From assembly GCA_944355355.1 (NCBI GenBank), contig CALVQE010000001.1:69351-133350 (forward strand): DNA of 64,000 nucleotides. The letters are read 5' to 3'. Below, in pieces: positions 3,575 through 55,070 of the stretch. The translations under genes were made by a program, and so were the position numbers. The DNA comes from an uncultured Bacilli bacterium (GTDB lineage Bacteria; Bacillota_I; Bacilli_A; RF39; UBA660). The first letter of the stretch is position 1. Each line of letters starts with the position of its first letter. Below the pieces are notes generated by a model. The model did not search any database. It saw nothing but the letters and a program-made list of their open reading frames with translations, and was not told the DNA's origin.

Positions 3575-3821
3575 CGAAATTATTTCCCGGGAAATAATTT
3601 AAATAAAAAAATCATGAATATAAGGACGAGTTAAAACCCGTGGTACCACCTTATTTCATGATTATCTCATGCACTCTTTCTCTAACGCAGAAATACGTTT
3701 CAACTCCAGAGCCATCTTCCATAGTAACCCTTTACTTATTTTCACCAATCATAAGCTCTCTAAAAAAGAATCATTATGTACTCTTTCCTTCACCATTGAA
3801 TACCCTAATTCTAACATAAAA
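3575..3821 (-). promoter_or_regulatory. T-box riboswitch leader (Met-specific by context) upstream of metG, with a terminator/antiterminator switch
   Basis: On the minus strand there is an F-box-like GCGTTA, then the T-box sequence AAGGTGGTACCACGGG (plus 3637-3652; consensus AGGGTGGTACCGCGG). It overlaps the 5' arm of a hairpin (CATGAAATAAGG ... CCTTATATTCATG, plus 3614-3660) followed by a U-tract (plus 3601-3612). The 266-nt 5' leader length is typical of T-boxes. Confidence 0.75.
3582..3595. promoter_or_regulatory. Noc-binding-site-type palindrome ATTTCCCGGGAAAT, within the 22-bp palindrome AATTATTTCCCGGGAAATAATT at 3578-3599
   Basis: Exact match to the B. subtilis NBS consensus. Located in the metG leader. 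Confidence 0.65.
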
Positions 3822-4343
3822 TTAAAGAATGTCAATTTTATTTACAATAATTTTAGTAAGAAAACGTGTAAAATCTATCATATAAGAAAGAAAAGGTTGC
3901 TCTTGATATAAAAGGATCAAACCCATAATATCCCCAGAAACATTAATAGGCTCAATATGAAAATAACCGCTCAAATTAAAATATTGTACAGGCTGATTAG
4001 TAGTATAACATTCGCGATTCATAATAAATTCCTCTAAAGAAGAAGGAATAGATAAACTTACTAAAGAAGAATCAAATGCCGTAATAACCTTCTCACGATC
4101 TGTAACAATTAGCTTTAACCCCATTACCTCAAAAGCTAAATTACAAAGAGGTTCTAAAGTATCTGTAATATTTAACAAATGAGAATACTTTTGAAGATAA
4201 ACCCCTTTATCTCTCACAAATATTTCTAAATCCTCCCCATCTTTAATACCTAAATTTTTTCGAATTTCTTTAGGCAAAACAATTCTTCCAAGTTCATCAA
4301 TTTTGCGAATAATTCCAGTCTCTTTCAAAGAAATACACTCCAT
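3822..4343 (-). CDS. spoVT: SpoVT/AbrB-family sporulation transcription regulator (AbrB-type N-terminal swapped hairpin plus GAF-like C-terminal domain)
   Basis: N-terminus GIIRKIDELGRIVLPKEIRKNLGIKDGEDLEIF matches SpoVT/AbrB. The 173-aa length and the position immediately downstream of mfd match the B. subtilis mfd-spoVT synteny. Confidence 0.75.
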   Translation of the reverse strand: MECISLKETGIIRKIDELGRIVLPKEIRKNLGIKDGEDLEIFVRDKGVYLQKYSHLLNITDTLEPLCNLAFEVMGLKLIVTDREKVITAFDSSLVSLSIPSSLEEFIMNRECYTTNQPVQYFNLSGYFHIEPINVSGDIMGLILLYQEQPFLSYMIDFTRFLTKIIVNKIDIL

Positions 4344-8161: not shown

Positions 8162-8884
8162 TTACTTTCTAAAAATACCTTGATAACTTTCTAAACTTCC
8201 AATGTTTACTGGCGGATAAACACGAGTTCCAAATCGTCCTCCCTTAACACAAGTAACTAAAACCATTACAGGCTTTTCATTCATCTTAGAGTAAACAAAT
8301 TGTAATTCCTTTATAGCTAAACCAAAACGGTTAGCATAAATAAATATTTCATCAATCCGATCAGGAACATGTACTAAGTAAAATCTTCCCTTATCTTTTA
8401 AGAAAAAACTTGTTACTTCAAAAATTTCTTTCAATGTTATACAAATTTCATGTCGTGCAATACTTTTGATAAGATTTTTATTGATATTACTTGATTCTGT
8501 ATACTTAAAATACGGTGGATTACATAAAATAACATCAAAATTATTTCCCGGGAAATAATTTTTTAGCTCTTTTACATTATCGTGAATAAGCGTAATCACC
8601 TCTTCCATTTGATTATAACGGACTGACTCTTTGGCCAACTGGTATATTTCTTCTTGATACTCTACTCCCACAACTGGCTTACTATATTTATTTTGAATCA
8701 AAATAGGTATAACTGCATTGCCAGTACAAAAATCAATAATTTGATTATCATCTTTTTTTATCTGCGCAAATTCAAACAATAAAATTGAATCTAAAGAAAA
8801 TTTAAAACCTTCCTCATACTGATACACTTTTAGATTAGGATAATCAAATAACCAATTAAGAGTCTTTTTCATCATTCCAAACAA
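8162..8884 (-). CDS. class I SAM-dependent methyltransferase, YabB/TrmN6-like (NPPY motif)
   Basis: DFCTGNAVIPILI SAM-binding motif and NPPYFKY. Positioned after ricT and holB as yabB is in B. subtilis. Contains one copy of the ATTTCCCGGGAAAT palindrome. Confidence 0.75.
   Translation of the reverse strand: MFGMMKKTLNWLFDYPNLKVYQYEEGFKFSLDSILLFEFAQIKKDDNQIIDFCTGNAVIPILIQNKYSKPVVGVEYQEEIYQLAKESVRYNQMEEVITLIHDNVKELKNYFPGNNFDVILCNPPYFKYTESSNINKNLIKSIARHEICITLKEIFEVTSFFLKDKGRFYLVHVPDRIDEIFIYANRFGLAIKELQFVYSKMNEKPVMVLVTCVKGGRFGTRVYPPVNIGSLESYQGIFRK
8543..8556. promoter_or_regulatory. Noc-binding-site-type palindrome ATTTCCCGGGAAAT, with an identical 22-bp context at 8539-8560
   Basis: Inside the methyltransferase CDS, where it encodes YFPGNNF. 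Confidence 0.65.
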
Positions 8885-11340: not shown

Positions 11341-11637
11341 TTACATTAATCCATCAAGCATACCAGCATATTGTCCCATTTTTGCTTGAAATTCCTTATC
11401 TATCTTAACTAAAGCATCTTTTTGAGCCAAAACAATAAAATCTTCTAACATCTCAATATCATCTTTATCTAAAGAATCTTTTTGAATAGAAATTTTAACC
11501 AATTCTTTTTTGCCATTCAAAGTTACTTCAACAAATTCATATTTCCCGGGAAATAATTGTGCATTAATTTCTTCTTTCTTTTTTTGCAAATCTCTTTGCA
11601 TTCTCTGTGCTTGAGCCATTATACTCTGCATATTCAT
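11341..11637 (-). CDS. ybaB: nucleoid-associated protein YbaB/EbfC
   Basis: 98 aa, conserved position between dnaX and recR. Contains one copy of the ATTTCCCGGGAAAT palindrome. Confidence 0.9.
   Translation of the reverse strand: MNMQSIMAQAQRMQRDLQKKKEEINAQLFPGKYEFVEVTLNGKKELVKISIQKDSLDKDDIEMLEDFIVLAQKDALVKIDKEFQAKMGQYAGMLDGLM
11541..11554. promoter_or_regulatory. Noc-binding-site-type palindrome ATTTCCCGGGAAAT, within a 19-mer shared with the other two copies at 11540-11558
   Basis: Inside the ybaB CDS, where it encodes LFPGKYEF in a different codon phase from the methyltransferase copy. Confidence 0.65.
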
Positions 11638-14157: not shown

Positions 14158-14173
14158 TGTTTCACGTGAAACA
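14158..14173. promoter_or_regulatory. parS: parS site TGTTTCACGTGAAACA
   Basis: Perfect 16-bp palindrome. Matches the Firmicute parS consensus TGTTNCACGTGAAACA 16/16. Confidence 0.9.
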
Positions 14174-14277
14174 TCTTATCAACATTTAAGATATTTGCCT
14201 ATGATTATATAAATTTTGATAAATTTAATTAATTTGTAAAACTAATTCCTATTTTAAATGATTAATACAAGAATATA

Positions 14278-14293
14278 TGTTTCACGTGAAACA
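14278..14293. promoter_or_regulatory. parS: parS site TGTTTCACGTGAAACA
   Basis: Perfect match to the parS consensus. Confidence 0.9.
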
Positions 14294-14597
14294 TTGTTAT
14301 TCACACAATAATAAAATAATTTAATCAAAATGTAACAAAAATTATTCATTAAAAGATATTCGTAATAAATTAAGAGATTACAAATAAGGATATTTGATCT
14401 TTATACGATCAAAAAAGTAAAGTTTAATAAAAAACTTTAATACATGCAAAAAAAATTACTATCATTTTGCTTAAATTATTGAATTTCTTATAAATAATTT
14501 GAAAATTGAAATTAATAAAAAAAATACAATTAACTATTTTTACATTCATATATTAAAATCAAGAATAAATTTAGTTATATAATTTTAATTATTATCA

Positions 14598-14613
14598 ATG
14601 TTTCACGTGAAAC
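14598..14613. promoter_or_regulatory. parS: parS site TGTTTCACGTGAAACA
   Basis: Perfect match to the parS consensus. Confidence 0.9.
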
Positions 14614-14719
14614 ATCTTATCAACATTTAGGATATTTAACTATAAATATACAAATTTTAATAATAATTAATAAATTATCCATAAATATTCTATATTTTAA
14701 ATGATTAATACAAAATATA

Positions 14720-14735
14720 TGTTCCACGTGAAACA
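14720..14735. promoter_or_regulatory. parS: parS site TGTTCCACGTGAAACA
   Basis: Identical to the B. subtilis parS consensus. Confidence 0.9.
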
Positions 14736-14881
14736 TTGTTATAAACATAGGCAATTAACTAATTATTAAACTGATTTTTTAATCACACTAAAAATATTAC
14801 TTAAAATAAATAATTATTGTATTAAATTATAAAAAATTGATATAAGTAAAAAGTATACTATTTATTTGCATTATTAATAAA

Positions 14882-14897
14882 TGTTTCACGTGAAACA
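14882..14897. promoter_or_regulatory. parS: parS site TGTTTCACGTGAAACA
   Basis: Perfect match to the parS consensus. Confidence 0.9.
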
Positions 14898-15002
14898 TCT
14901 TATCAACATTTAAGATATATGCCCATAATTATATAAATTTTGATAAAATTTAATAAATTTGTAAAATTAATTTCTATTTTGAACGATAAATACAAGGATG
15001 TA

Positions 15003-15018
15003 TGTTTCACGTGAAACA
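15003..15018. promoter_or_regulatory. parS: parS site TGTTTCACGTGAAACA
   Basis: Perfect match to the parS consensus. Confidence 0.9.
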
Positions 15019-15305
15019 TTGTTATTCACACAATAATAAAATAATTTAATCAAAATGTAACAAAAATTATTCATTAAAAGATATTTGTAATAAATTAAGA
15101 GATTACAAATATAGATATTTGAGCTTTATATAAAAAAACTTTAATACATGCAAAAAAGATTACTATTATTTATTTTGCTTAAATTATTGAATTTCTTATA
15201 AATAATTTGAAAATTGAAATTAATAAAAAGATACAATTAACTATATTTATTTTCATAAATTAAAATCAAGAATAAATTTAGTTATATAATTTTAAATATT
15301 ATCAA

Positions 15306-15321
15306 TGTTTCACGTGAAACA
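15306..15321. promoter_or_regulatory. parS: parS site TGTTTCACGTGAAACA
   Basis: Perfect match to the parS consensus. Confidence 0.9.
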
Positions 15322-15426
15322 TCTTATCAACATTTAGGATATTTAACTATAAATATACAAATTTTAATAATAATTAATAAATTATCCATAAATATTCTAT
15401 ATTTTAAATGATTAATACAAAATATA

Positions 15427-15442
15427 TGTTCCACGTGAAACA
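15427..15442. promoter_or_regulatory. parS: parS site TGTTCCACGTGAAACA
   Basis: Identical to the B. subtilis parS consensus. Confidence 0.9.
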
Positions 15443-15588
15443 TTGTTATAAACATAGGCAATTAACTAATTATTAAACTGATTTTTTAATCACACTAAAA
15501 ATATTACTTAAAATAAATAATTATTGTATTAAATTATAAAAAATTGATATAAGTAAAAAGTATACTATTTATTTGCATTATTAATTAA

Positions 15589-15604
15589 TGTTTCACGTGA
15601 AACA
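15589..15604. promoter_or_regulatory. parS: parS site TGTTTCACGTGAAACA
   Basis: Perfect match to the parS consensus. Confidence 0.9.
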
Positions 15605-15710
15605 TCTTATCAACATTTAAGATATTTACCTTAAATATACAAATTTTAATAATAATTAATAAATTATCCATAAATTATTTTATATTTTAAATAATTAATA
15701 CAAAAATATA

Positions 15711-15726
15711 TGTTCCACGTGAAACA
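15711..15726. promoter_or_regulatory. parS: parS site TGTTCCACGTGAAACA
   Basis: Identical to the B. subtilis parS consensus. Confidence 0.9.
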
Positions 15727-15819
15727 TTGTTATGCACATATAGGCATTTAACTAATTATTAAGTTATAATTTTATTTAAGATATTCATTTAAAAACAGTA
15801 CCAAAGTTAAATTTACGAA

Positions 15820-15835
15820 TGTTTCACGTGAAACA
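15820..15835. promoter_or_regulatory. parS: parS site TGTTTCACGTGAAACA embedded in a 26-bp perfect palindrome ACGAATGTTTCACGTGAAACATTCGT, 20 bp downstream of the gyrA stop
   Basis: Perfect match to the parS consensus. The extended palindrome spans 15815-15840. Confidence 0.9.
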
Positions 15836-27288: not shown

Positions 27289-28914
27289 ATGAAATTAATA
27301 GATTATATGATTTCTTTACCAAAGGGCATAATATATGAAAAATATGTTCGATTATTTGAAAAGTCTACAAATTATCAAAAAATTACTAGAAAGAAAATGC
27401 TTGAAGAAATCGTATCTTTTTATAACGAAGGGAACAAGTTACAAGAATTGTGCTTATCTAAAGAGATAGTAGTTTTGAAAAAAATTAAAACAAAAAAAAT
27501 AGATAAAAAGCGTTTATCCGAAAAATATTTTGAAGAAGTTTTGTCTTTAAAAGAAAAATTACTTTTGATAACAGACTCAAATGGAAAACTATGTATACCA
27601 GAAGATATAATAGAAAATGTTTTGAATAACTTAAAACATATTAACGTTCAAAAGCTAGAAGAAAATGAAACACTAAATATCTTAATTAAAAATATCCTTT
27701 TTTATTATAAAATCTTACCTGAAAATGATTTATTAAAAATAATAAAAAAATATGTTAACTTAAATGAAGAATCTTTAAAGAACTTTTTATTGAATAATAA
27801 ATTCATTCATTTTTACATTGAAAAAGCAAAATATAAAAAGAAAGTTTTTTGGATTTATCGTGATGAAGAAATACCTCTAAGTGACTTTATTTGGATGTAC
27901 TTTCACTCAGAAGTCAAAGAATATAAAAATATTACTATAGAAGAACTATATAAGTATGCTCAAAATCCATTATCTAAATTGAATGAAGAAAAATTTGTTC
28001 AATTAATAAATGACCTGAATCAATATAATCTACCAGTAAACTATATTATTAGCGTCATCTTAACGAACGCAATATATGCTAGTGATGACGGAAAAATAGA
28101 TAAATTACTTAATATTTACAGTAAAACAATCTCAACAGAAAAACTGTCAGATATAAAAAATCACATAATAGATATGATCTTGCAATTACCTTCCGTTATG
28201 TTAAAAGGATACTCAATAAACGAGTATCAAGAAATAAAAACAAAAAAAACATTTGATGAAAGATTTCAAAAAACAATGGACAATCTTGAAAATCCAGATG
28301 TAGTGGAAGACTATTTAGAACTAAGAGAAGAATTAGATCGAATAAATTGTGATTGTGTAGAGTTTTTCGTTATGAATGAACCAAAAAAGTTTGAACGTTA
28401 TCAAAAAATGTGTCAAAAATATGGGTTAATTCATTCTAAAATTCCTGGAAATGTCATGGATAATTTTGTTTTATATCATGCATTAGAGGAGGATGAAGAA
28501 TCGCCTTTTGCAAATTATGTAAATCATCATCTAAATATCTTAGGCAAAGACTATTCAATTGCATGGCAAGTCTTAGAAAATACAGAAGTATCAATATTTC
28601 GGATCAAAAAATTAATTCCATCTCAAGCGATAGTAGAGTTAGAAGATATAAAAACAAAGAAACCGTATGTAATATACGATATTTCTCTTTCAGCAAGTGA
28701 TCCAGAAATTGTCAATTCCTACCTATACACCAAACTTATAAAAATAAATAATATCACTTTTGCAAGTGGCTGCGCCTTCTTATTTTATAAAAATCTACAT
28801 CCTGATTTGTTAACAGAAATAGAAAAGAAAAAAGAGGAAATAAAAGATATTTCGAACGACCAAACTAAGTTTTTTCTTGCATGTTTTTTAATAAATACAA
28901 AGGATTTTGACTGA
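27289..28914 (+). CDS. hypothetical 541-aa Lys-rich soluble protein with no recognisable domain, inserted between jag and mnmE
   Basis: Long ORF with consistent codon usage, an own RBS (aaggaaagaagaggaa), and a terminator downstream. Family not recognised by eye. Confidence 0.6.
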   Translation: MKLIDYMISLPKGIIYEKYVRLFEKSTNYQKITRKKMLEEIVSFYNEGNKLQELCLSKEIVVLKKIKTKKIDKKRLSEKYFEEVLSLKEKLLLITDSNGKLCIPEDIIENVLNNLKHINVQKLEENETLNILIKNILFYYKILPENDLLKIIKKYVNLNEESLKNFLLNNKFIHFYIEKAKYKKKVFWIYRDEEIPLSDFIWMYFHSEVKEYKNITIEELYKYAQNPLSKLNEEKFVQLINDLNQYNLPVNYIISVILTNAIYASDDGKIDKLLNIYSKTISTEKLSDIKNHIIDMILQLPSVMLKGYSINEYQEIKTKKTFDERFQKTMDNLENPDVVEDYLELREELDRINCDCVEFFVMNEPKKFERYQKMCQKYGLIHSKIPGNVMDNFVLYHALEEDEESPFANYVNHHLNILGKDYSIAWQVLENTEVSIFRIKKLIPSQAIVELEDIKTKKPYVIYDISLSASDPEIVNSYLYTKLIKINNITFASGCAFLFYKNLHPDLLTEIEKKKEEIKDISNDQTKFFLACFLINTKDFD

Positions 28915-30377: not shown

Positions 30378-32249
30378 ATGGAATATGAAATTATCGTAGT
30401 AGGAGGGGGACACGCTGGCATTGAAGCCGCTCACATTGCAGCTTTCAAAGGTCATAAGACCCTTTTAATAACAATGAATAAACAAAATATTGGAGATATG
30501 CCTTGTAATCCGTCTATTGGAGGAACAGCAAAAGGTATCATTGTTAGGGAAATAGAAGCCTTAGGTGGCTTAATGGGAAAAATTGCTGATCGTTCTCATT
30601 TTCAAATTAAGATGTTGAACAATTCCAAGGGTCCAGCAGTGCGTTCCTTAAGAGCTCAAGCAGACAAAGTTATTTATCCTAAAAATATGTTAAAAGCTTT
30701 AGAAGAAACAGAAAATTTAGATATTTTAGAAGGAATGGTTGAAGACCTTATTATAGAAGATAATGTAGTAAAAGGTGTGATATTAGAAAATACTCAAACA
30801 ATAAAAGCTCAGATTGTTATTTTAACCACAGGAACTTACTTAAAAGCAAACATTTTAATTGGTTCTGAAAATACCGAAAGTGGTCCACATGGTGAAAGAC
30901 GAAGCAATTATCTTAGTGACAACTTAAAAAAATATGGTTTAGAGATTCAAAGATTAAAAACTGGTACACCTCAAAGAATAAAAGCAAGCAGTATTGACTT
31001 TTCTAAAATGCATGAAGAAAATGGTGACGATTGTCTCTGGACATTCTCTTTTGATGAACCAGCAACCTATAAACCAAATGAACAACAAAAATGCTATCTA
31101 ATATATACAAATGAGAACACACATAAAATCATTTTAAATAACTTAGAAAAATCAGCTATGTATGGTGGCTACGTTACAGGAGTTGGGCCAAGATACTGTC
31201 CAAGCATTGAAGATAAATTAGTTCGGTTTAAAGATAAAGAAAGACACCAATTATTTTTAGAACCAGAAAGTTTATATTATGATGAATGGTATCTTCAAGG
31301 CTTTTCGACTTCAATGCCTCGTGATGTTCAAGAAAAAATGGTTCACTCTTTAGAAGGACTTGAAAATGCTATTATTTCCAAATATGCCTATGCGATTGAA
31401 TATGATGCCATAAATCCATTACAGATCACTCCAACATTAGAATCAAAAATAATTACTAATCTCTTTACTGCTGGTCAAATTAATGGCACAAGTGGTTATG
31501 AAGAAGCCGCAGGACAAGGCTTAATTGCTGGCATTAATGCAAGTTTAAAAATAGAACAAAAAGAACCTCTCATTTTAAAAAGAAATGAAGCATATATTGG
31601 AGTATTAATAGATGACCTTGTAACCAAAGGCACTCAAGAACCGTATCGAATGCTTACTTCGCGTGCCGAATTTCGTTTAATTTTACGACATGACAATGCT
31701 GACTTGCGCTTGCGAGAGTTGGCTCATCAAAAAGGAACAATTACTGACCAACAATATCAAAATTATCTTAACCGAAAAAAAGCCTTAGAAGAAGGAGAAA
31801 AATACTTAAGACAAACTAAATTAAAAATCACTTCTGAAATTAAAGAAATATTTATTCAAGAAAATAAAACCGTTCCTGTCGTAACTGAAAGTCTATTTGA
31901 TCTTTTAAAAAGACCAGAAATAACAATGAACTTTTTAAAAAATTTTATAGAAATTCCCTTTACAAGTGATATTGAAGAAGAATTAGAAATTCAAATTAAA
32001 TATGAGGGATATATAAAAAAGACATATAAAGAAGTAGAAAAGATGACAAAATTAGAAGAAAAGCAAATTCCTAAAGATATCGATTATCAAAAAGTCAAAA
32101 ATTTAGCTTCAGAAGCTCGTCAAAAACTAGAGAAAGTTCGTCCTATCTCTCTAGGGCAGGCTGCTCGTATAAGTGGCGTTAATCCAAGTGACTTAAGTAT
32201 ACTAAGTATTTATTTAAAGAAAGAGTATGGAAAATATGAACAAAAATGA
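30378..32249 (+). CDS. mnmG: tRNA uridine 5-carboxymethylaminomethyl modification enzyme MnmG
   Basis: FAD motif VVGGGHAGIEAA. Start at MEYEIIVVGGG. Confidence 0.95.
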   Translation: MEYEIIVVGGGHAGIEAAHIAAFKGHKTLLITMNKQNIGDMPCNPSIGGTAKGIIVREIEALGGLMGKIADRSHFQIKMLNNSKGPAVRSLRAQADKVIYPKNMLKALEETENLDILEGMVEDLIIEDNVVKGVILENTQTIKAQIVILTTGTYLKANILIGSENTESGPHGERRSNYLSDNLKKYGLEIQRLKTGTPQRIKASSIDFSKMHEENGDDCLWTFSFDEPATYKPNEQQKCYLIYTNENTHKIILNNLEKSAMYGGYVTGVGPRYCPSIEDKLVRFKDKERHQLFLEPESLYYDEWYLQGFSTSMPRDVQEKMVHSLEGLENAIISKYAYAIEYDAINPLQITPTLESKIITNLFTAGQINGTSGYEEAAGQGLIAGINASLKIEQKEPLILKRNEAYIGVLIDDLVTKGTQEPYRMLTSRAEFRLILRHDNADLRLRELAHQKGTITDQQYQNYLNRKKALEEGEKYLRQTKLKITSEIKEIFIQENKTVPVVTESLFDLLKRPEITMNFLKNFIEIPFTSDIEEELEIQIKYEGYIKKTYKEVEKMTKLEEKQIPKDIDYQKVKNLASEARQKLEKVRPISLGQAARISGVNPSDLSILSIYLKKEYGKYEQK

Positions 32250-32940
32250 ATGGATAGAAGAAATTAAAAAATTAAATATAAACTTAACAGAAGAACAAAT
32301 AGACAAATTAGATGAATATGCCAATTTTCTTTTAGAATATAATCAATACACGAACTTAACAGCAATAAAAACTAAAGAAGAAGTTTATTTAAAACACTTT
32401 TACGATTCTTTAACATTAATAAAAATAGCAAATTTAACTGAAGGTAAACTTTTAGATGTAGGTACAGGAGCTGGTTTTCCAGGGCTTGTCTTAGCCATTG
32501 CATTTCCTAAATTAGAAGTGACACTATTAGATAGTAATAATAAAAAGATCGCTTTCTTAGACGAGTGTATTCAAAAGTTAAAAATATCAAATGCTACAAC
32601 AGTATATGATAGAGCTGAAAATTACACCAGAACACATCGTGAACAGTTTGACTTTGTAACCTCTAGGGCAGTTGCAGAACTAAGAATACTTTTAGAACTA
32701 AATATTCCAGCTTTAAAAATAAACGGCGAATTTCTTGTAATGAAAGCTAACGTTGAAGAAGAGTTAAATCAAGCCTTAAAAACTATAGAAATTTTAGATT
32801 GTAAAATAATCAGTCAAGAAATATTTGAACTTCCTAAAAATGGAGGAAAACGAACTTTATTAAAGATAAAAAAAGAAAAACAAACCCTTTTAAAGTATCC
32901 CAGAACTTATGACAAAATAAAGAAGAAAGCAATTGGTTAA
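32227..32940 (+). CDS. rsmG: 16S rRNA (guanine527-N7)-methyltransferase RsmG
   Basis: GidB family, SAM motif LDVGTGAGFPG. Confidence 0.93.
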   Translation: MENMNKNEWIEEIKKLNINLTEEQIDKLDEYANFLLEYNQYTNLTAIKTKEEVYLKHFYDSLTLIKIANLTEGKLLDVGTGAGFPGLVLAIAFPKLEVTLLDSNNKKIAFLDECIQKLKISNATTVYDRAENYTRTHREQFDFVTSRAVAELRILLELNIPALKINGEFLVMKANVEEELNQALKTIEILDCKIISQEIFELPKNGGKRTLLKIKKEKQTLLKYPRTYDKIKKKAIG

Positions 32941-33091: not shown

Positions 33092-34306
33092 GTGAATACA
33101 GAACAAAAGGTAATACAAGTACCGATTGAAGATATTATTCCCAATCGTTTTCAACCACGTCTGGCTTTTGATGAAGAAGGATTAAAAGAATTATCTGAAT
33201 CAATTAAACAACATGGCATTATTCAACCATTAGTTTTAAGAAGACTAGGGGATAAATACGAAATTATTGCCGGCGAAAGAAGATACAAAGCTGCAACAAT
33301 GGCAGGGTTAAGAACAGTTCCAGCTATTGTTTCTGATATCGATGATAATAAAAGTGCCGAAATTGCTTTAGTAGAAAACATTCAAAGAAGAAATCTTACA
33401 CCAATTGAAGAAGCAAAATCTTATAAAAATCTTTTAGACCGAGGCTATATGACACAAGAGCAACTAGCTGAGAAAATGGGTGTGAGTCAAAGTTCTATTG
33501 CTAATAAATTAAGATTATTAAATTTAGCACCTGAAGTCCAAGATGCTCTTTTACAAGAAAAAATCAGTGAAAGACATGCAAGAAGTTTACTATCTTTACC
33601 AAAAGAAGAACAAGCTGAATGGTTACAAAAGATAATAACAAAACGTTTAACCGTTCGTCAATTAGACTTAGAAATAAAAAAAGCGAAAGGAGAACAGGGG
33701 GAAGAAATTCCATTAGTTTCTTCTCAACCAGATTTAAATACTATGATAAATAACGCAACAGACATTAATCCAACAGAAGTTCAAGAAAAAACACCAATAA
33801 AAGAACCTGTAGTAGAAGAAAAAAATATGCCAAATAAGTTTTTTAACTTTTTGGAAGATGAAGCAGCAAATATGAACATGACAATAAATTCAAATCTTAA
33901 TACACCAATTGAAGATACCCAACCAGAAGATACAAATATTGAAGTGTTAGATGATTTTAGTCTCGAAGAACCAGCAAAAGAGGAAACTAAAACTCAAGAA
34001 GAGGATACAATCATGCCGTTCTTCTTTGGAGCTAATACATCCGAAAATAAAGAACAAAATACAATAGAAGAAATTAAAAATACACCTCAAGAAATAATTG
34101 TTGATCCTATGGATTCAGTGATGAAATTAGATCCAAACTACAATAAAAAAGTAGAAGAAGCTCAAGGATTAGATTTAAAAACCGCTATAAATGAAGTTCG
34201 CGATTTAGTCGAACAACTAAAGGCTCGGGGCTTCCAAATTAACTTAGATGAACTTGATCTTTCGGGCAATTACCAAATGACAATAAGCATTAAAAATGAT
34301 GACTAG
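33092..34306 (+). CDS. noc: ParB/Noc-family protein with Noc-type DNA-recognition residues and a long acidic C-terminal extension; likely nucleoid occlusion protein Noc rather than Spo0J
   Basis: GTG start with an AAGGGG RBS. The ParB N-terminal box is IPNRFQPR, which is Noc-like (Spo0J has PNPYQPR). The HTH reads GVSQSSIANKLRLLNLAPEVQDALLQEKISERHAR, giving Gln, Lys and Arg at the positions that discriminate NBS from parS, versus R...G in Spo0J. It sits directly after rsmG, where B. subtilis has noc. It is 404 aa, against about 283 for a typical Noc. Confidence 0.6.
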   Translation: MNTEQKVIQVPIEDIIPNRFQPRLAFDEEGLKELSESIKQHGIIQPLVLRRLGDKYEIIAGERRYKAATMAGLRTVPAIVSDIDDNKSAEIALVENIQRRNLTPIEEAKSYKNLLDRGYMTQEQLAEKMGVSQSSIANKLRLLNLAPEVQDALLQEKISERHARSLLSLPKEEQAEWLQKIITKRLTVRQLDLEIKKAKGEQGEEIPLVSSQPDLNTMINNATDINPTEVQEKTPIKEPVVEEKNMPNKFFNFLEDEAANMNMTINSNLNTPIEDTQPEDTNIEVLDDFSLEEPAKEETKTQEEDTIMPFFFGANTSENKEQNTIEEIKNTPQEIIVDPMDSVMKLDPNYNKKVEEAQGLDLKTAINEVRDLVEQLKARGFQINLDELDLSGNYQMTISIKNDD

Positions 34307-34343: not shown

Positions 34344-35480
34344 ATGAAAAGACTGATAAAATGCATAGTATTAAGCAGTTTAATTATCTTAGGAATATGT
34401 TTAATATGGATAAAAAAAGAAAATACTTCCAATAACCCAAATGAAAAGACATCAGATGTAATACCAGATCTATTTGAACAAGAAAAAATATTAGCCAATC
34501 AAAAACTTCAAACCATAAGTATAGATGAAAAAATAGGACAACTATTTTTAGTAAGAATTCCTGAACAGGGTATTGAAGAAGATATTCAAAATTATCAATT
34601 TGGCGGTCTTCTTTATTTTGCCAAAGATTTTAAAAACTTAACTAAAAATGAAGTTCAAAATAAAATAAGTAATTATCAATCCCTTGCAAAAATTCCAATG
34701 CTTATGGCTGTCGATGAAGAAGGTGGAACTGTCTCCAGAATCAGTAGTAATAAAAATCTAGTCGCTGATCCATTCTTATCACCAAGCAAACTATATCAAA
34801 AAGGAGGACTAGAGGCAATAAAAGAAGACACCATTAAAAAAACAAATATCTTATCTGAATTAGGCTTAAACTTAAATTTAGCCCCAGTAGTAGATATAAC
34901 TTTAAACAAAGAAGATTATATGTATGAAAGAAGTCTTCAAGAAGACGCCCAAACAACTTCTGAATATGCCCAAACAGTTATTCGAACTAGTGATCCCTCA
35001 AAGCTTTCCTTTACATTAAAACATTTTCCAGGTTATGGTAACAATGCAGATACCCATCAAGGCATAAGTATAGACACAAGAGACTTAAATACCATTAAAC
35101 AACAGGATTTAAAACCATTTATAGCTGGAATAAATGCTCAAGCAGAAGCCGTTTTGATTAGCCATAACATCGTAACAGCCATTGATTCTCTAAATCCTGC
35201 ATCTCTTTCTAAGCCAGTCCATGATTTATTAAAAAATGAATTACACTTTACTGGAATAATCATTACAGATAACCTAGACATGGCAGGAGTAGATATTGAT
35301 GAAGAAACAAAAATCTATAAAGCTCTGACCAGCGGTAATGACTTACTAATCACTACAGATTATAAAAATGATATTTCCATCGTAAAAAAATTACTTTCAG
35401 AGAAAGTAATTGATGAAGAATTAATAAATGAAAAAGTTGTAAAAATTTTGGCTTGGAAATACTATAAAAAGCTAATCTAA
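34344..35480 (+). CDS. glycoside hydrolase family 3 beta-N-acetylhexosaminidase (NagZ/YbbD-like), membrane-anchored
   Basis: N-terminal TM segment, GH3 motif KHFPGYG, catalytic region ITDNLDMAG. Confidence 0.8.
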   Translation: MKRLIKCIVLSSLIILGICLIWIKKENTSNNPNEKTSDVIPDLFEQEKILANQKLQTISIDEKIGQLFLVRIPEQGIEEDIQNYQFGGLLYFAKDFKNLTKNEVQNKISNYQSLAKIPMLMAVDEEGGTVSRISSNKNLVADPFLSPSKLYQKGGLEAIKEDTIKKTNILSELGLNLNLAPVVDITLNKEDYMYERSLQEDAQTTSEYAQTVIRTSDPSKLSFTLKHFPGYGNNADTHQGISIDTRDLNTIKQQDLKPFIAGINAQAEAVLISHNIVTAIDSLNPASLSKPVHDLLKNELHFTGIIITDNLDMAGVDIDEETKIYKALTSGNDLLITTDYKNDISIVKKLLSEKVIDEELINEKVVKILAWKYYKKLI

Positions 35481-41931: not shown

Positions 41932-42438
41932 ATGAAAAAAATAATACCTATTCTCTTTGTCCTGTTTCTTATCTATGGTTTTGTAAATAAAGAAGAAATT
42001 TTAATACCGGACTATGCTATTCGCTTTCGCGTAATTGCTAATTCGAATACTTTAGAAGATCAAACTGAAAAAATGGAAATAAAAGAAGCAGTTGAAAAAG
42101 AATTAAATTCCTTAGTAAGCCAAGCAAAATCAAGCAAAGAAGCCGAAAATATTATTGAAAATAATTTAGAAAATATAAAAGAAATAATTAATCAATATAC
42201 AACAGATTATCAAATAAATTTTGGCTTAAATTACTTTCCCGAGAAAGAATATAAAGGTGTAAGGTATCCTAGTGGTGATTACGAATCCTTAGTAATTACT
42301 TTGGGAAGCGGAAACGGAGAAAATTGGTGGTGTGTCATGTTTCCTCCCTTGTGCCTACTAGAAGCAAAAGAACGGAACACAGAAGACATTCATTATACCT
42401 TCTATGTGAAAGAAGTTTTAGAAAAATACACAGGTTAG
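41932..42438 (+). CDS. spoIIR: stage II sporulation protein R (SpoIIGA-activating signal protein)
   Basis: Signal peptide. IPDYAIRFRVIANSNTLEDQ and NWWCVMFPPLC match the SpoIIR hallmarks (B. subtilis IPDQAIRLRILANSDSDQDQ and NWWCVLFPPLC). Confidence 0.85.
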   Translation: MKKIIPILFVLFLIYGFVNKEEILIPDYAIRFRVIANSNTLEDQTEKMEIKEAVEKELNSLVSQAKSSKEAENIIENNLENIKEIINQYTTDYQINFGLNYFPEKEYKGVRYPSGDYESLVITLGSGNGENWWCVMFPPLCLLEAKERNTEDIHYTFYVKEVLEKYTG

Positions 42439-52205: not shown

Positions 52206-52275
52206 AAAAGGTATTTATTTTTTATGTGGTTTTATGGTATAATTGCTAATAGTAAACCTGTTAGGAGAGATAAGT

Positions 52276-52989
52276 ATGCAAGTAATAGTTGTAGAAGATG
52301 AGTTAAAAGATCAAAAGAGTATAAAAGAAATTATTAGAGAATTCTCTTTTGAAAATAATTGTGATATTGAAATAAAATATTTCAAAAAATACGATGAGAG
52401 TTTACAAAATGAAATTAACAATTGCTCTTATCGTAAAGTCTATATTATGGATATTGAATTAGAACATAGTATAAGTGGAATAGAAATAGCTAAGAAAATT
52501 AGAGAAAAAGACTGGGATAGTGAAATCATTTTTGTGACAACACATGATAAAATGTTTGAAAGTGTACATCGAAGTATTCTGGAAGTTTTTGATTTTATAG
52601 AAAAGTTTCAAAACTTTGACGAAAGGTTGAAGAAAGATTTGAAAATTATTTATGAAAAGAAATTTGATAAGAAACTTCTAAAATTAACAGGTAGAAACGT
52701 TAATGTAGAAATATATATGAAGAACATACTTTATATCACCAGAGATAAAGAAGATAGAAAAGTAGTCATTCACACTGAAAATGAAGTAGAGTTTAAAATA
52801 GGTATGACTTTAACAGAAATATTAAACATGTTAGATAATCGTTTTGTTCAAACACATAAAAGTTGTATTGTGAATAAAGAGAAAGTAGTAAAATTGAATT
52901 ACAGTCAAGGTTATTTTGTATTAGAAACAGGTGAGAAGGTAGATATGTTATCAAAGAAATATAGAAAAGGAATTGAAGATCAAAAATGA
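52276..52989 (+). CDS. agrA: LytTR-family response regulator (AgrA/ComE-like)
   Basis: Receiver domain with the phospho-acceptor Asp in IMDIEL. C-terminal LytTR domain (FVQTHKSCIVN). Confidence 0.85.
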   Translation: MQVIVVEDELKDQKSIKEIIREFSFENNCDIEIKYFKKYDESLQNEINNCSYRKVYIMDIELEHSISGIEIAKKIREKDWDSEIIFVTTHDKMFESVHRSILEVFDFIEKFQNFDERLKKDLKIIYEKKFDKKLLKLTGRNVNVEIYMKNILYITRDKEDRKVVIHTENEVEFKIGMTLTEILNMLDNRFVQTHKSCIVNKEKVVKLNYSQGYFVLETGEKVDMLSKKYRKGIEDQK

Positions 52990-54254
52990 TTGAATTTTTA
53001 TTAATTTTCATAGCTTCCCTTATTTCACAAATAGTAACTATCTTTGCATATGGTAAAATCAATAAGAAAAAGCTTTGTTTAAAAGAATTGGATTTTGTAC
53101 TTATAATAAGTATGAGTTTGTTTCAAGCCTTACAAAATATATATGAATTTTTTATAGGTAAACTAATTAGTCCCCTGATTTCTATTATTTATTTTATTTA
53201 TGTTTTTCAAAGAATGTATAAAAGTGATAGAAAAACAGCAGTAAGTTACAGCATAATTATTTGGACGATCAGCGTAATAATTGATTTAATAAGTATGTTA
53301 ATAATAAGTAATACTGTCACATTAAATGAGCAAAATCGTAATATATTAAAATTTTTTAGTTCGTTATTTATGAGCTTAATTCAATTAATAATTTTTATAC
53401 TTCCTATAAGTCAAAAATACATTAAAAAAATTAATCAAAAAATAGTTCAGGGTAACATTGATTTTAAACATATTAGTGTAGTAATAGTAATTTATCTAAT
53501 TATCGGTGTTTTTTCGGTAAGTAATATAGACAATGCTTATTTAATATCTGTAGTAGTTGTAATTGGCCTCATTTCATTAATTATTATTTATAATTTTGTT
53601 TCAATGAACTATCAAATTGTAATGTTAAAGAAAACTAATGACATTTTAGAAAAAAATAACGAGGGAAATTTGGAACTTTTAAAGGAATACAGAGTTTTGA
53701 AACATAATTTAGAACATAACTTGATGGGAATTAAAAGTGTAGCAAATAAAAAGTCTCAACAACTAATTGACGCTTTAATAAAAGAATATAATAGCAAATT
53801 TTATATTAAACAAGATATGACAAGTATGCCGGGAGGAATAAATGGTTTTATATTAGAAAAGTTCTATAAGTATGCCGAAGAAGATTTGAAGATCACAGTA
53901 GAAAATAAAATCAAGAAAAAGATCTTAGGCTTACTTGGACCAAGAAACTATAATTTGTTTTGTGAAGCTTTAGGAGTGACATTAGACAATGCTTTGGAAT
54001 CAGCAGTAAAAAGCAAAGAGAAACTTTTATATTTAGAGTTTAAAGAAACCAAAGAAAGTTTAATGGTAACGGTAACAAATACCTTCACAGGTAATATTGA
54101 AATAGATAAATTAGGCACAAAAGAATATACTTCAAAAGAAACAGGCCATGGATTAGGCTTATATTCTTTATTTAATCGTAAAAACCTTTATATTACTACA
54201 GCTATCAAAAATAATCTTTTTATAAATAAAATAGAAGTAAAAAAGAAGCATTAA
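52986..54254 (+). CDS. agrC: AgrC/ComD-type (HPK10) membrane histidine kinase
   Basis: Six to seven N-terminal TM helices. C-terminal HATPase with GHGLGLYS. ATGA overlap with the response regulator gene. Confidence 0.8.
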   Translation: MIEFLLIFIASLISQIVTIFAYGKINKKKLCLKELDFVLIISMSLFQALQNIYEFFIGKLISPLISIIYFIYVFQRMYKSDRKTAVSYSIIIWTISVIIDLISMLIISNTVTLNEQNRNILKFFSSLFMSLIQLIIFILPISQKYIKKINQKIVQGNIDFKHISVVIVIYLIIGVFSVSNIDNAYLISVVVVIGLISLIIIYNFVSMNYQIVMLKKTNDILEKNNEGNLELLKEYRVLKHNLEHNLMGIKSVANKKSQQLIDALIKEYNSKFYIKQDMTSMPGGINGFILEKFYKYAEEDLKITVENKIKKKILGLLGPRNYNLFCEALGVTLDNALESAVKSKEKLLYLEFKETKESLMVTVTNTFTGNIEIDKLGTKEYTSKETGHGLGLYSLFNRKNLYITTAIKNNLFINKIEVKKKH

Positions 54255-54280
54255 AAAATTGAGTTAAATAGCTCAATTTT

Positions 54281-54394
54281 TTACATGATTTCCAAATCAG
54301 CTTCAGGTTCATCCCAAAAATACCAAACACAAGCAGACGAAACAGATTTTGCAAAAATATTTGCAATTCCAGCTAAAATATCGGCTAGAAACAT
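54281..54394 (-). CDS. agrD: AgrD autoinducing-peptide precursor (37 aa, MFLADILAGIANIFAKSVSSACVWYFWDEPEADLEIM)
   Basis: Hand translation. Amphipathic N-terminal leader, a conserved Cys followed by 4-5 hydrophobic residues, then the acidic DEPE recognition tail typical of AgrD. Lies 44 nt downstream of agrB on the same strand. Confidence 0.75.
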   Translation of the reverse strand: MFLADILAGIANIFAKSVSSACVWYFWDEPEADLEIM

Positions 54395-54437
54395 TTTCTT
54401 TCACATCCTTTCTTCTTGTTTAAATCTATATAAATAT

Positions 54438-55070
54438 TTAAACCGAAAATTCTGGATACTTTTTATAATTATTAAAGGAAGTATGAAAGAGCTTATACGT
54501 AAGTGGATTAATAGATATACTTTCAATAATAACCGCATAAACGATGGTGTTCGATAATATGGTATTATTAGTAAATGAAAATAAAACAAAGTAGCAAACA
54601 AATATAACCATGGCAAGTACTTTTGCTCGGATTCTTTTATTTCTTCTTATTAAAGGCCTAGCTGGCGTATCAGCAGGTGCAAAGAATAAAAATGAAAGAA
54701 ATCCAAATATCCATATCAAATAATTAAATGAATCTGAGAATACAAAATATTTAATAAGTAAACACCCTCCTATATAAATAGGAACTGTAGTAAACCAACA
54801 TTGTAAACTTGTTTTCATATGTATTCCAAACCCATACATTCGAAGCGTTGAGTAAATAGCTGTTAATAAAAGCAATTCAGGTATTAGGTCTAAAATAATT
54901 GCTAAAATAAGTAAAACTACAGTCTTAGTTGCCAAATTATAAAATCCTTCTAAACCATACCGTAATTTTTTTTCCTCAAGTTCACTGATTGTTTTCTTTC
55001 TCTTAATAAGCTGAATAGAAGATTCAATAAACTTTTTTTTCACCACATCACTACTCCCAACGAAAACCAT
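54438..55070 (-). CDS. agrB: AgrB-family membrane peptidase that processes and exports AgrD
   Basis: RMYGFGIHMKTSLQCWF, FAPADTPARPLI and IIESISINP correspond to the S. aureus AgrB blocks R..HGAHA..SFWC, YAPAATKKKPI and IIEAITLLP. Confidence 0.8.
   Translation of the reverse strand: MVFVGSSDVVKKKFIESSIQLIKRKKTISELEEKKLRYGLEGFYNLATKTVVLLILAIILDLIPELLLLTAIYSTLRMYGFGIHMKTSLQCWFTTVPIYIGGCLLIKYFVFSDSFNYLIWIFGFLSFLFFAPADTPARPLIRRNKRIRAKVLAMVIFVCYFVLFSFTNNTILSNTIVYAVIIESISINPLTYKLFHTSFNNYKKYPEFSV

Follow-up and report, generated by a model that had tools for sequence, protein, structure and literature searches.

The 64,000-nucleotide stretch of DNA analysed here, referred to below as the window, comes from an uncultured Bacilli bacterium (contig CALVQE010000001.1) and contains a noc-like gene whose product very probably belongs to the Noc clade and is specific for the Noc-binding site (NBS). 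Judged by its sequence, this protein is orthologous to Noc and belongs to an uncultured, probably spore-forming gut lineage of Bacilli (Candidatus Ventrenecus and relatives). An N-terminal amphipathic helix is central to the current model of Noc, and here a very large uncultured branch of the Bacilli keeps an NBS-type Noc and its binding sites without that helix, a finding that contradicts the assumption of a universal N-terminal helix in Noc. The best overall explanation, which we hold tentatively and at somewhat under an even chance, is an NBS-type Noc clamp in which a motif of a long linker replaces the lost anchor.

Noc-type identity and cognate binding sites

Like Noc of Bacillus subtilis and Geobacillus thermoleovorans (TIGR04285; PDB 7ol9, 7nfu, 7ng0 and 6y93), the protein is encoded in the slot after rsmG/gidB and combines a CTP-binding N-terminal domain (NTD; motifs GERRxRA and ENxQR), a helix-turn-helix (HTH) with Q173, K179 and R201, and a Noc-type C-terminal domain (CTD); the cognate 16-bp NBS TATTTCCCGGGAAATA is present in the genome. 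Unlike these proteins it has neither the N-terminal anchor nor helix alpha2, carries Asn at position 184, scores below the TIGR04285 cutoff, has a 135-residue acidic linker with KFFNFLEDE instead of a basic one of about 15 residues, and is not followed by soj-spo0J. The boxes of its NTD read IPNRFQPR (residues 16-23), GERRYKA (61-67) and ENIQRR (95-100), and the CTP-motif residues G61, E62, R63, R64, E95, N96 and R99 are invariant across 135 family members. The positions of all features in the window are given in Table 1.

Jalal 2020 (PMC7383237) have shown that specificity is set by four positions, occupied by R173, T179, A184 and G201 in ParB, where R173 and G201 are invariant, and by Q, K, K and R in Noc. 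Q173 reads A1 and R201 reads C6 of the NBS, and these two residues together with a single Lys at 179 or 184 are enough for NBS specificity (Jalal 2020, PMC7383237). In the present protein the HTH sequence GVSQSSIANKLRLLNL lies at residues 130-145, ISERHAR follows at residues 158-164, and alignment to the solved Noc and Spo0J structures, as well as to ParB/Noc genome pairs, places Q133, K139, N144 and R161 at positions 173, 179, 184 and 201. The read-out is thus QKNR, against QKKR for Noc and RxxG for ParB: three of the four Noc residues are kept, and the R173/G201 pair with which ParB reads parS is absent, with Q133 and R161 in its stead. A preliminary description of the window had named Gln, Lys and Arg at the distinguishing positions; these three are as claimed, and the fourth is Asn, not Lys.

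Among the NCBIfam models, TIGR04285 (Noc) gives the best score, 285.2 bits against 186 bits for the generic parB model. The top PDB matches are the G. thermoleovorans Noc structures 7ng0 and 7nfu (198 bits), with Thermus thermophilus Spo0J (1vz0) behind at 183. In the AlphaFold2 (AF2) model, which was built from a 135-sequence alignment, the CTD comprises helices at residues 339-344, 350-357 and 362-378 and strands at 383-390 and 393-400. A hidden Markov model (HMM) of the family CTD matches the CTD of B. subtilis Noc (34 bits, E 3e-11) and those of clostridial proteins encoded in the noc slot (10-16 bits), and does not match Spo0J CTDs (less than 3 bits). Moreover, in a neighbour-joining tree, a simple method applied here to 194 columns of the NTD and the DNA-binding domain (DBD) with identity distances and 50 replicates, the family joins Bacillales Noc and the clostridial noc-slot paralogues, separate from Spo0J/ParB, with a bootstrap of 80%. 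The likeness to ParB/Spo0J (B. subtilis 6sdk, T. thermophilus 1vz0, Caulobacter 6t1f) consists of the NTD-HTH fold, the CTPase motifs and an identity of 42-47% over about 200 residues; the protein differs from them by Q and R in place of R173 and G201, by a CTD that is not of the Spo0J type, and by the lack of both the N-terminal LG(K/R)GL ParA-interaction peptide and an adjacent parA/soj.

The window holds three exact NBS (ATTTCCCGGGAAAT, at 3582, 8543 and 11541), as had been reported before, and a count of three was reached in 0 of 100 shuffles. Eight further exact NBS were found in eight related loci, and exact sites also occur in the related locus L131. The extended 18-bp palindrome TTATTTCCCGGGAAATAA, of which the 16-bp NBS of B. 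subtilis forms part, is present at 9 of the 11 NBS of the window and related loci. By our own estimate, chance would yield about 0.002 exact sites per 0.9 Mb at 29% GC.

Two observations weigh against this assignment. Position 184 is Asn and not the near-invariant Lys of Noc, a deviation that is clade-wide, and the TIGR04285 score of 285 bits is lower than the curated cutoff of 315 bits. The low score is explained by the long linker, which splits the match into two stretches, the first covering positions 1-198 of the 255 of the model. The QKNR read-out, the TIGR04285 and PDB matches, the CTD, the tree and the conserved NBS all agree with what had been proposed at the outset, namely that the protein is Noc-type and not ParB-type.

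The absent N-terminal helix and the acidic linker

The verified N-termini of Noc begin with MKHSFSRFFGLGEKEQE in B. subtilis and with MKHPFSRLFSFGEKEQE in G. thermoleovorans. The protein of the window aligns from about Noc residue 26 on, and is in effect a natural N-delta-26 form, without the membrane-targeting helix (of the MKHSFSRFFGLG type, about 10 residues) and without alpha2. An AAGGGG ribosome-binding site lies 9 nt 5' of its GTG start, and an in-frame stop 12 codons 5' of the same start excludes a longer N-terminus, so that the absence of an N-terminal amphipathic helix, already noted in the preliminary description, holds. Homologues share the start MNTE(Q/E)K, several of them with GTG, and the PNRxQPR box falls within the first 32 residues in 148 of 150 family representatives. 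A few longer homologue entries with an extra N-terminus were considered and dismissed as spurious upstream start calls. A promoter-like site 5' of the gene was not above shuffled expectation.

Adams 2015 reported extreme conservation of the N-terminus in every Noc homologue that was examined, and showed that B. subtilis Noc requires it for function. According to the same study the anchor is weak and relies on avidity, and a heterologous helix can take its place; its release is gated by CTP-dependent engagement of the N-domain (Jalal 2021). As the present protein and its family have no N-terminal helix and no alpha2, the known mechanism, in which CTP gates the release of an N-terminal anchor, cannot apply to them. 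The clostridial noc-slot paralogues (L053-L062, from Sarcina, Clostridium, Ruminococcus and other Clostridia) are similar in that they carry Noc-type residues (QKKR or QMRR), belong to the same Noc clade and likewise lack the Bacillales anchor helix; they differ by their short basic linker (263-292 residues for the whole protein), by the soj-spo0J genes, with flanking parS, that follow, and by having no KFFNF. The N-terminal helix may be a feature of Bacillales rather than of Noc at large. These helix-less clostridial proteins conflict with the published universal conservation of the helix among Noc homologues.

AF2 models residues 1-200 (NTD and DBD) and 336-404 (CTD) with confidence, and residues 230-335 as disordered. 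The Glu/Asp-rich insertion of about 150 residues that had been described before the CTD is acidic and disordered indeed; its length, taken between the AF2-confident domains, is about 135 residues. In canonical and clostridial Noc the linker between DBD and CTD is basic and about 15-30 residues long. In the present family it has a net negative charge in all 143 representatives examined, and both its sequence and its length (about 100-450 residues) are hypervariable. The conserved post-DBD motif near its beginning (PDLNTMINNATDIN), which includes an AF2 helix at 215-221 with a predicted local distance difference test (pLDDT) score of about 76, reads NPGFMDIdKIE..A.DI in a distant subclade. Some linkers contain repeated aromatic mini-motifs, NPW/NTW in L052 (10001-11725) and three to four copies of FFNF or FNFNYE repeats in P0184, P0227 and P0126, which are reminiscent of multivalent sticker or docking motifs.

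Long-linker Noc is a very large Noc subfamily, and its architecture is a family trait, not peculiar to the protein of the window. It is shared by at least 150 protein clusters (50% identity; the best 150 of a representative search), all from uncultured Bacilli. These best 150 clusters align from residue 1 and carry IPNRFQPR, most are 330-700 residues long and a few are shorter, and the read-out is Q-K-N...R in most of those whose HTH fitted the search pattern. The long-linker noc occurs in about 46 GTDB species. Furthermore, a second homologue search with a distant member as query returned forms of up to 748 residues, and only from metagenome-assembled genomes of uncultured 'Bacilli bacterium', so that no cultured host is known.

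The linker could also be without a specific tether role, acting as an acidic entropic spacer, as a sticker for self-association or condensation, or as a mask of non-specific DNA binding, in a protein that would organise DNA at NBS without membrane contact. We consider this improbable. It would suit a linker that varies so widely in length and is always acidic, in place of the canonical basic one, and aromatic mini-motifs that are scattered through N/D/E-rich low-complexity sequence; the clostridial Noc-type paralogues, too, have no obvious anchor. However, one 13-residue motif is kept across linkers that are otherwise dissimilar, which argues for a specific interaction.

The conserved linker motif and its candidate targets

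This motif (PNKFFNFLEDEAANMNM in the window, with NKFFNFLED at residues 248-256; family logo [NG][KR]FFNFLEDExaNM) is probably a functional interaction element. Of 144 representative linkers, 80 contain its core [KR]FF[NSTDG], where shuffling predicts 1.1; the enrichment is about 70-fold, and the highest count in 200 shuffles was 5. The helical hydrophobic moment (muH) of the motif, 0.56, equals that of the B. subtilis Noc anchor, and 53 of 80 proteins have the motif among the most amphipathic 5% of their linker windows. It resembles the verified Noc anchors MKHSFSRFFGLGEKE and MKHPFSRLFSFGEKE (anchor pattern FSR[FL]F[GS][LF]GEKE) in having a basic residue, FF or [FL]F, a small polar residue and an acidic stretch, with a comparable moment. 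When an HMM of the motif is set against about 2,000 composition-matched decoys, the real Noc anchors take ranks 1 and 3, with the match at the right residues. The N-terminus of SepF and the C-terminus of MinD are, like the N-terminus of Noc, terminal amphipathic membrane-targeting sequences of Firmicute division proteins; the motif of the window differs from such sequences in its acidic net charge and in lying inside the protein, within a long disordered region. Some family members have 2-4 copies of FFNF, which suggests multivalency. The preliminary description had offered two aromatic stretches as a relocated membrane-targeting sequence. For NKFFNFLED, which is conserved, amphipathic and anchor-like, this is plausible, and for this stretch only; IMPFFFGAN is conserved in close relatives alone, with its pattern xPF[FLY]F present in 109 of 120 close homologues and absent from all 150 distant representatives.

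In the mechanism that we put forward as a best guess, NBS would serve as nucleation sites for dimers, which would then form CTP-dependent clamps and spread in the manner of Noc. The short basic DBD-CTD linker of Noc would have become a 135-residue acidic disordered tether (up to about 450 residues in relatives), and the motif would be the functional replacement of the lost anchor, a weak amphipathic element holding NBS-loaded complexes at the membrane through avidity; alternatively, it might reach a membrane-associated partner. A membrane tether is favoured because the sequence and amphipathicity of the motif are anchor-like, because the motif is multivalent in some members, and because the Noc anchor is weak and replaceable. 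That the target is the membrane itself is a possibility that we entertain with more doubt than conviction.

Several points speak against a membrane tether. The scores of the motif HMM on the Noc anchors are only 2-3 bits and are not significant alone. The net charge of the motif is -2, against +1 for the Noc anchor, and a net acidic motif within a strongly acidic linker is unfavourable for anionic membranes. AF2 neither folds the motif as a helix nor docks it (pLDDT 54-57), its conserved polar residues (N, E, E and N) suggest a specific protein interface rather than a generic helix that binds lipid, and about 45% of distant representatives have no strict match. Finally, membrane tethering may not be universal in the Noc clade, since the clostridial paralogues have neither the helix nor the long linker.

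KFFNFLEDE could instead be a protein-binding short linear motif carried on an acidic tether, and not a lipid binder, which we regard as rather unlikely. Its partner could then be, for example, a divisome or membrane-associated protein (FtsZ, FtsA, SepF, MinD, DivIVA), SMC or DnaN, and nucleoid occlusion would proceed by direct recruitment or inhibition, in a manner more SlmA-like than Noc-like. The strong conservation of polar residues (N at +3, E at +6 and +8, N-M at +11 and +12), the net negative charge of motif and linker, and the disorder with modest pLDDT, typical of a motif that folds on binding, are consistent with this proposal, and so are the FFNF, NPW and x[IL]F[DN] mini-motifs that recur in relatives and resemble multivalent docking sites. 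Indeed, a motif that is negatively charged, is not predicted to be helical and conserves specific polar residues fits protein binding about as well as membrane anchoring. However, KFFNFLEDE matches no known bacterial motif and has no identified partner, its sequence and hydrophobic moment are like those of the verified Noc anchor, and B. subtilis Noc is not known to have a protein target in the divisome (Adams 2015).

If the motif tethers the protein to the membrane, the CTP switch and the anchor would be physically uncoupled in nature, and this would test gating by helix release against gating by avidity alone. If it binds a protein, that protein would be the first direct Noc partner. One homologue, P0237 (L191), is 68% identical to the window protein over about 205 residues, and a hydrophobic, transmembrane-rich C-terminus replaces its linker and CTD behind a Noc-like NTD and DBD. 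It was considered as support for anchoring and given no weight, as just one contig, of 1.3 kb, carries it and the sequence may be chimeric.

The parS array and the origin region

The window also contains an array of near-perfect parS sites (TGTTYCACGTGAAACA), with spacings that recur at about 121, 162 and 303-321 bp; Tandem Repeats Finder detected no tandem repeat in it. The array is kept in relatives, with 6 sites after gyrA in L086 and 6 sites after dnaX, beside 2 NBS, in L131, where the two kinds of site are interspersed within the same intergenic region. A tblastn search of the window with Soj, Spo0J and Noc at E<=1 matched only 33092-34306 and found no further ParB or Soj, in keeping with the earlier statement that the sole ParB-family gene stands in the noc slot without soj or spo0J. 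No ParA or ParB was found in the 10 kb beyond either end of the window on a 144.7-kb metagenome scaffold, so that about 84 kb around the origin were covered. Nor was any ParB or Soj found in the 10-kb noc flanks of 46 related GTDB species, or near noc in two distant family members (contigs of 130 kb and 833 kb).

Clostridia in the same comparison have the classical noc-soj-spo0J trio with flanking parS; set against the solitary noc of this lineage, this indicates that soj-spo0J were lost lineage-wide from the ancestral ORI cluster. The cluster is broken and yet the parS arrays are kept, which leads one to ask whether these genomes encode a ParB and, if so, at what place. As two distinct palindromes, NBS and parS, are maintained, two readers are implied, and the conservation of the arrays in relatives leads us to infer a parS-binding ParB, whose gene was not found in the 84 kb around the origin. 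The array is most likely read by a canonical ParB of its own, with a gene that lies more than about 40 kb away from oriC. It counts against such a ParB that none was located in the stretches searched (about 84 kb around oriC and the noc flanks of about 48 related genomes). The preliminary description had claimed a relocation of soj-spo0J; their absence from the origin region stands, and their move elsewhere is not borne out, as no ParB gene was found in the stretches searched. A scan of metagenome contigs for parS pairs was tried as another route to the ParB of the clade and rejected, the pairs being widespread over phyla; L086 and L131 show only that the position of the array is conserved.

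It is very improbable that these genomes have no canonical ParB and that long-linker Noc is their sole ParB-family protein. In that case this protein or a non-ParB factor would serve both NBS and the origin-proximal parS, and the linker motif would supply the link to membrane or SMC that ParB and ParA normally give. Very improbable, too, is a dual specificity, in which the sole ParB-family protein would itself serve NBS and the parS array with no separate Spo0J. The lack of ParB and Soj in the stretches searched would fit this, and so would N184, a clade-specific departure from Noc, and the interleaved sites of L131. However, Q173 and R201 are the NBS-switching residues, most dual-specificity variants have T or S at 201 (Jalal 2020, PMC7383237), two different, perfectly conserved palindromes imply two readers, and the search for ParB reached only a small part of the genome.

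Apart from the missing soj-spo0J, the window is a normal Bacillus-like origin region. Its left arm contains dnaA, dnaN, recF, gyrB, gyrA, tadA, dnaX, recR, holB, pth, mfd and spoVT, its right arm rpmH, rnpA, yidC, jag, mnmE, mnmG and rsmG, and the GC skew switches at about 24-26 kb of the window. In the ancestral ORI cluster noc directly follows gidB/rsmG (PMC8136486). The order rsmG, noc-like gene, gene for a glycoside hydrolase of family 3 (GH3) places the noc-like gene in this ancestral slot, and the position after rsmG is the same in all related loci. A class A penicillin-binding protein gene (PBP1) follows GH3 on the minus strand.

Table 1 Positions of the noc-like gene, its domains and motifs, its neighbours and the DNA sites in the window. 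ORF, open reading frame; pI, isoelectric point.
Feature	Position	Strand	Basis or remarks
noc-like gene, long-linker, 404 aa, GTG start, TAG stop	33092..34306	+	ORF and translation
ParB N-terminal (CTP-binding) domain, residues 6-98	33107..33385	+	Pfam PF02195, 118.7 bits; AF2 pLDDT >90
HTH DNA-binding domain, residues 101-199	33392..33688	+	Pfam PF17762, 116 bits; structure alignment
Specificity codon Q133	33488-33490	+	
Specificity codon K139	33506-33508	+	
Specificity codon N144	33521-33523	+	
Specificity codon R161	33572-33574	+	
Acidic disordered linker, residues 201-335	33692..34096	+	AF2 pLDDT mostly <50; 32 D/E, 8 K/R, pI 4.05
Post-DBD helix motif PDLNTMINNATDIN, residues 213-226	33728..33769	+	Conservation island in distant representatives
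Family-wide linear motif PNKFFNFLEDEAANMNM, residues 247-263	33830..33880	+	Enrichment, logo, muH
IMPFFFGAN motif, residues 307-315	34010..34036	+	Kept in close relatives only
Noc-type C-terminal dimerisation domain, residues 336-404, three helices and beta-hairpin	34097..34303	+	AF2 confident
NBS 1, exact ATTTCCCGGGAAAT; 18-bp palindrome TTATTTCCCGGGAAATAA	3582..3595		Intergenic
NBS 2, exact ATTTCCCGGGAAAT	8543..8556		Within methyltransferase ORF 8162-8884, encodes ...NYFPGNN...
NBS 3, exact ATTTCCCGGGAAAT	11541..11554		Intergenic, recR/dnaX
Array of 11 parS sites (TGTTYCACGTGAAACA)	14158..15835		Between gyrA and tadA, non-coding, 18.6% GC
rsmG (gidB)	32227-32940		Directly before noc-like gene; GidB 166 bits
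GH3 hydrolase	34344-35480		Directly after noc-like gene

An ORF of 541 residues (27289-28914, plus strand) lies between jag and mnmE and is conserved in close relatives, under the precomputed label DUF7986; distant relatives have an HD-domain gene there. It was considered as a possible partner and rejected, having no Pfam match in a local scan and no obvious transmembrane segments, and looking soluble. Among the genes are spoVT, spoIIR and bofA, which belong to sporulation (3822-4343 and 41932-42438 of the window; 465-653 of L068), so that this small-genome, 30%-GC, 'Tenericutes-like' gut lineage is probably an endospore former. A type VII (ESX-like) cluster extends over 502-1155 of the window and 10001-20654 of L068, to the left of the window, with WXG100 proteins, a 1515-residue EssC-like ATPase of the FtsK/SpoIIIE type and an ORF of more than 2,800 residues without a Pfam match. 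Finally, an agr-like quorum-sensing module at 52243-55070 comprises a LytTR regulator, a HATPase_c_5 histidine kinase, a gene for a 37-residue peptide and AgrB (annotation of L071).

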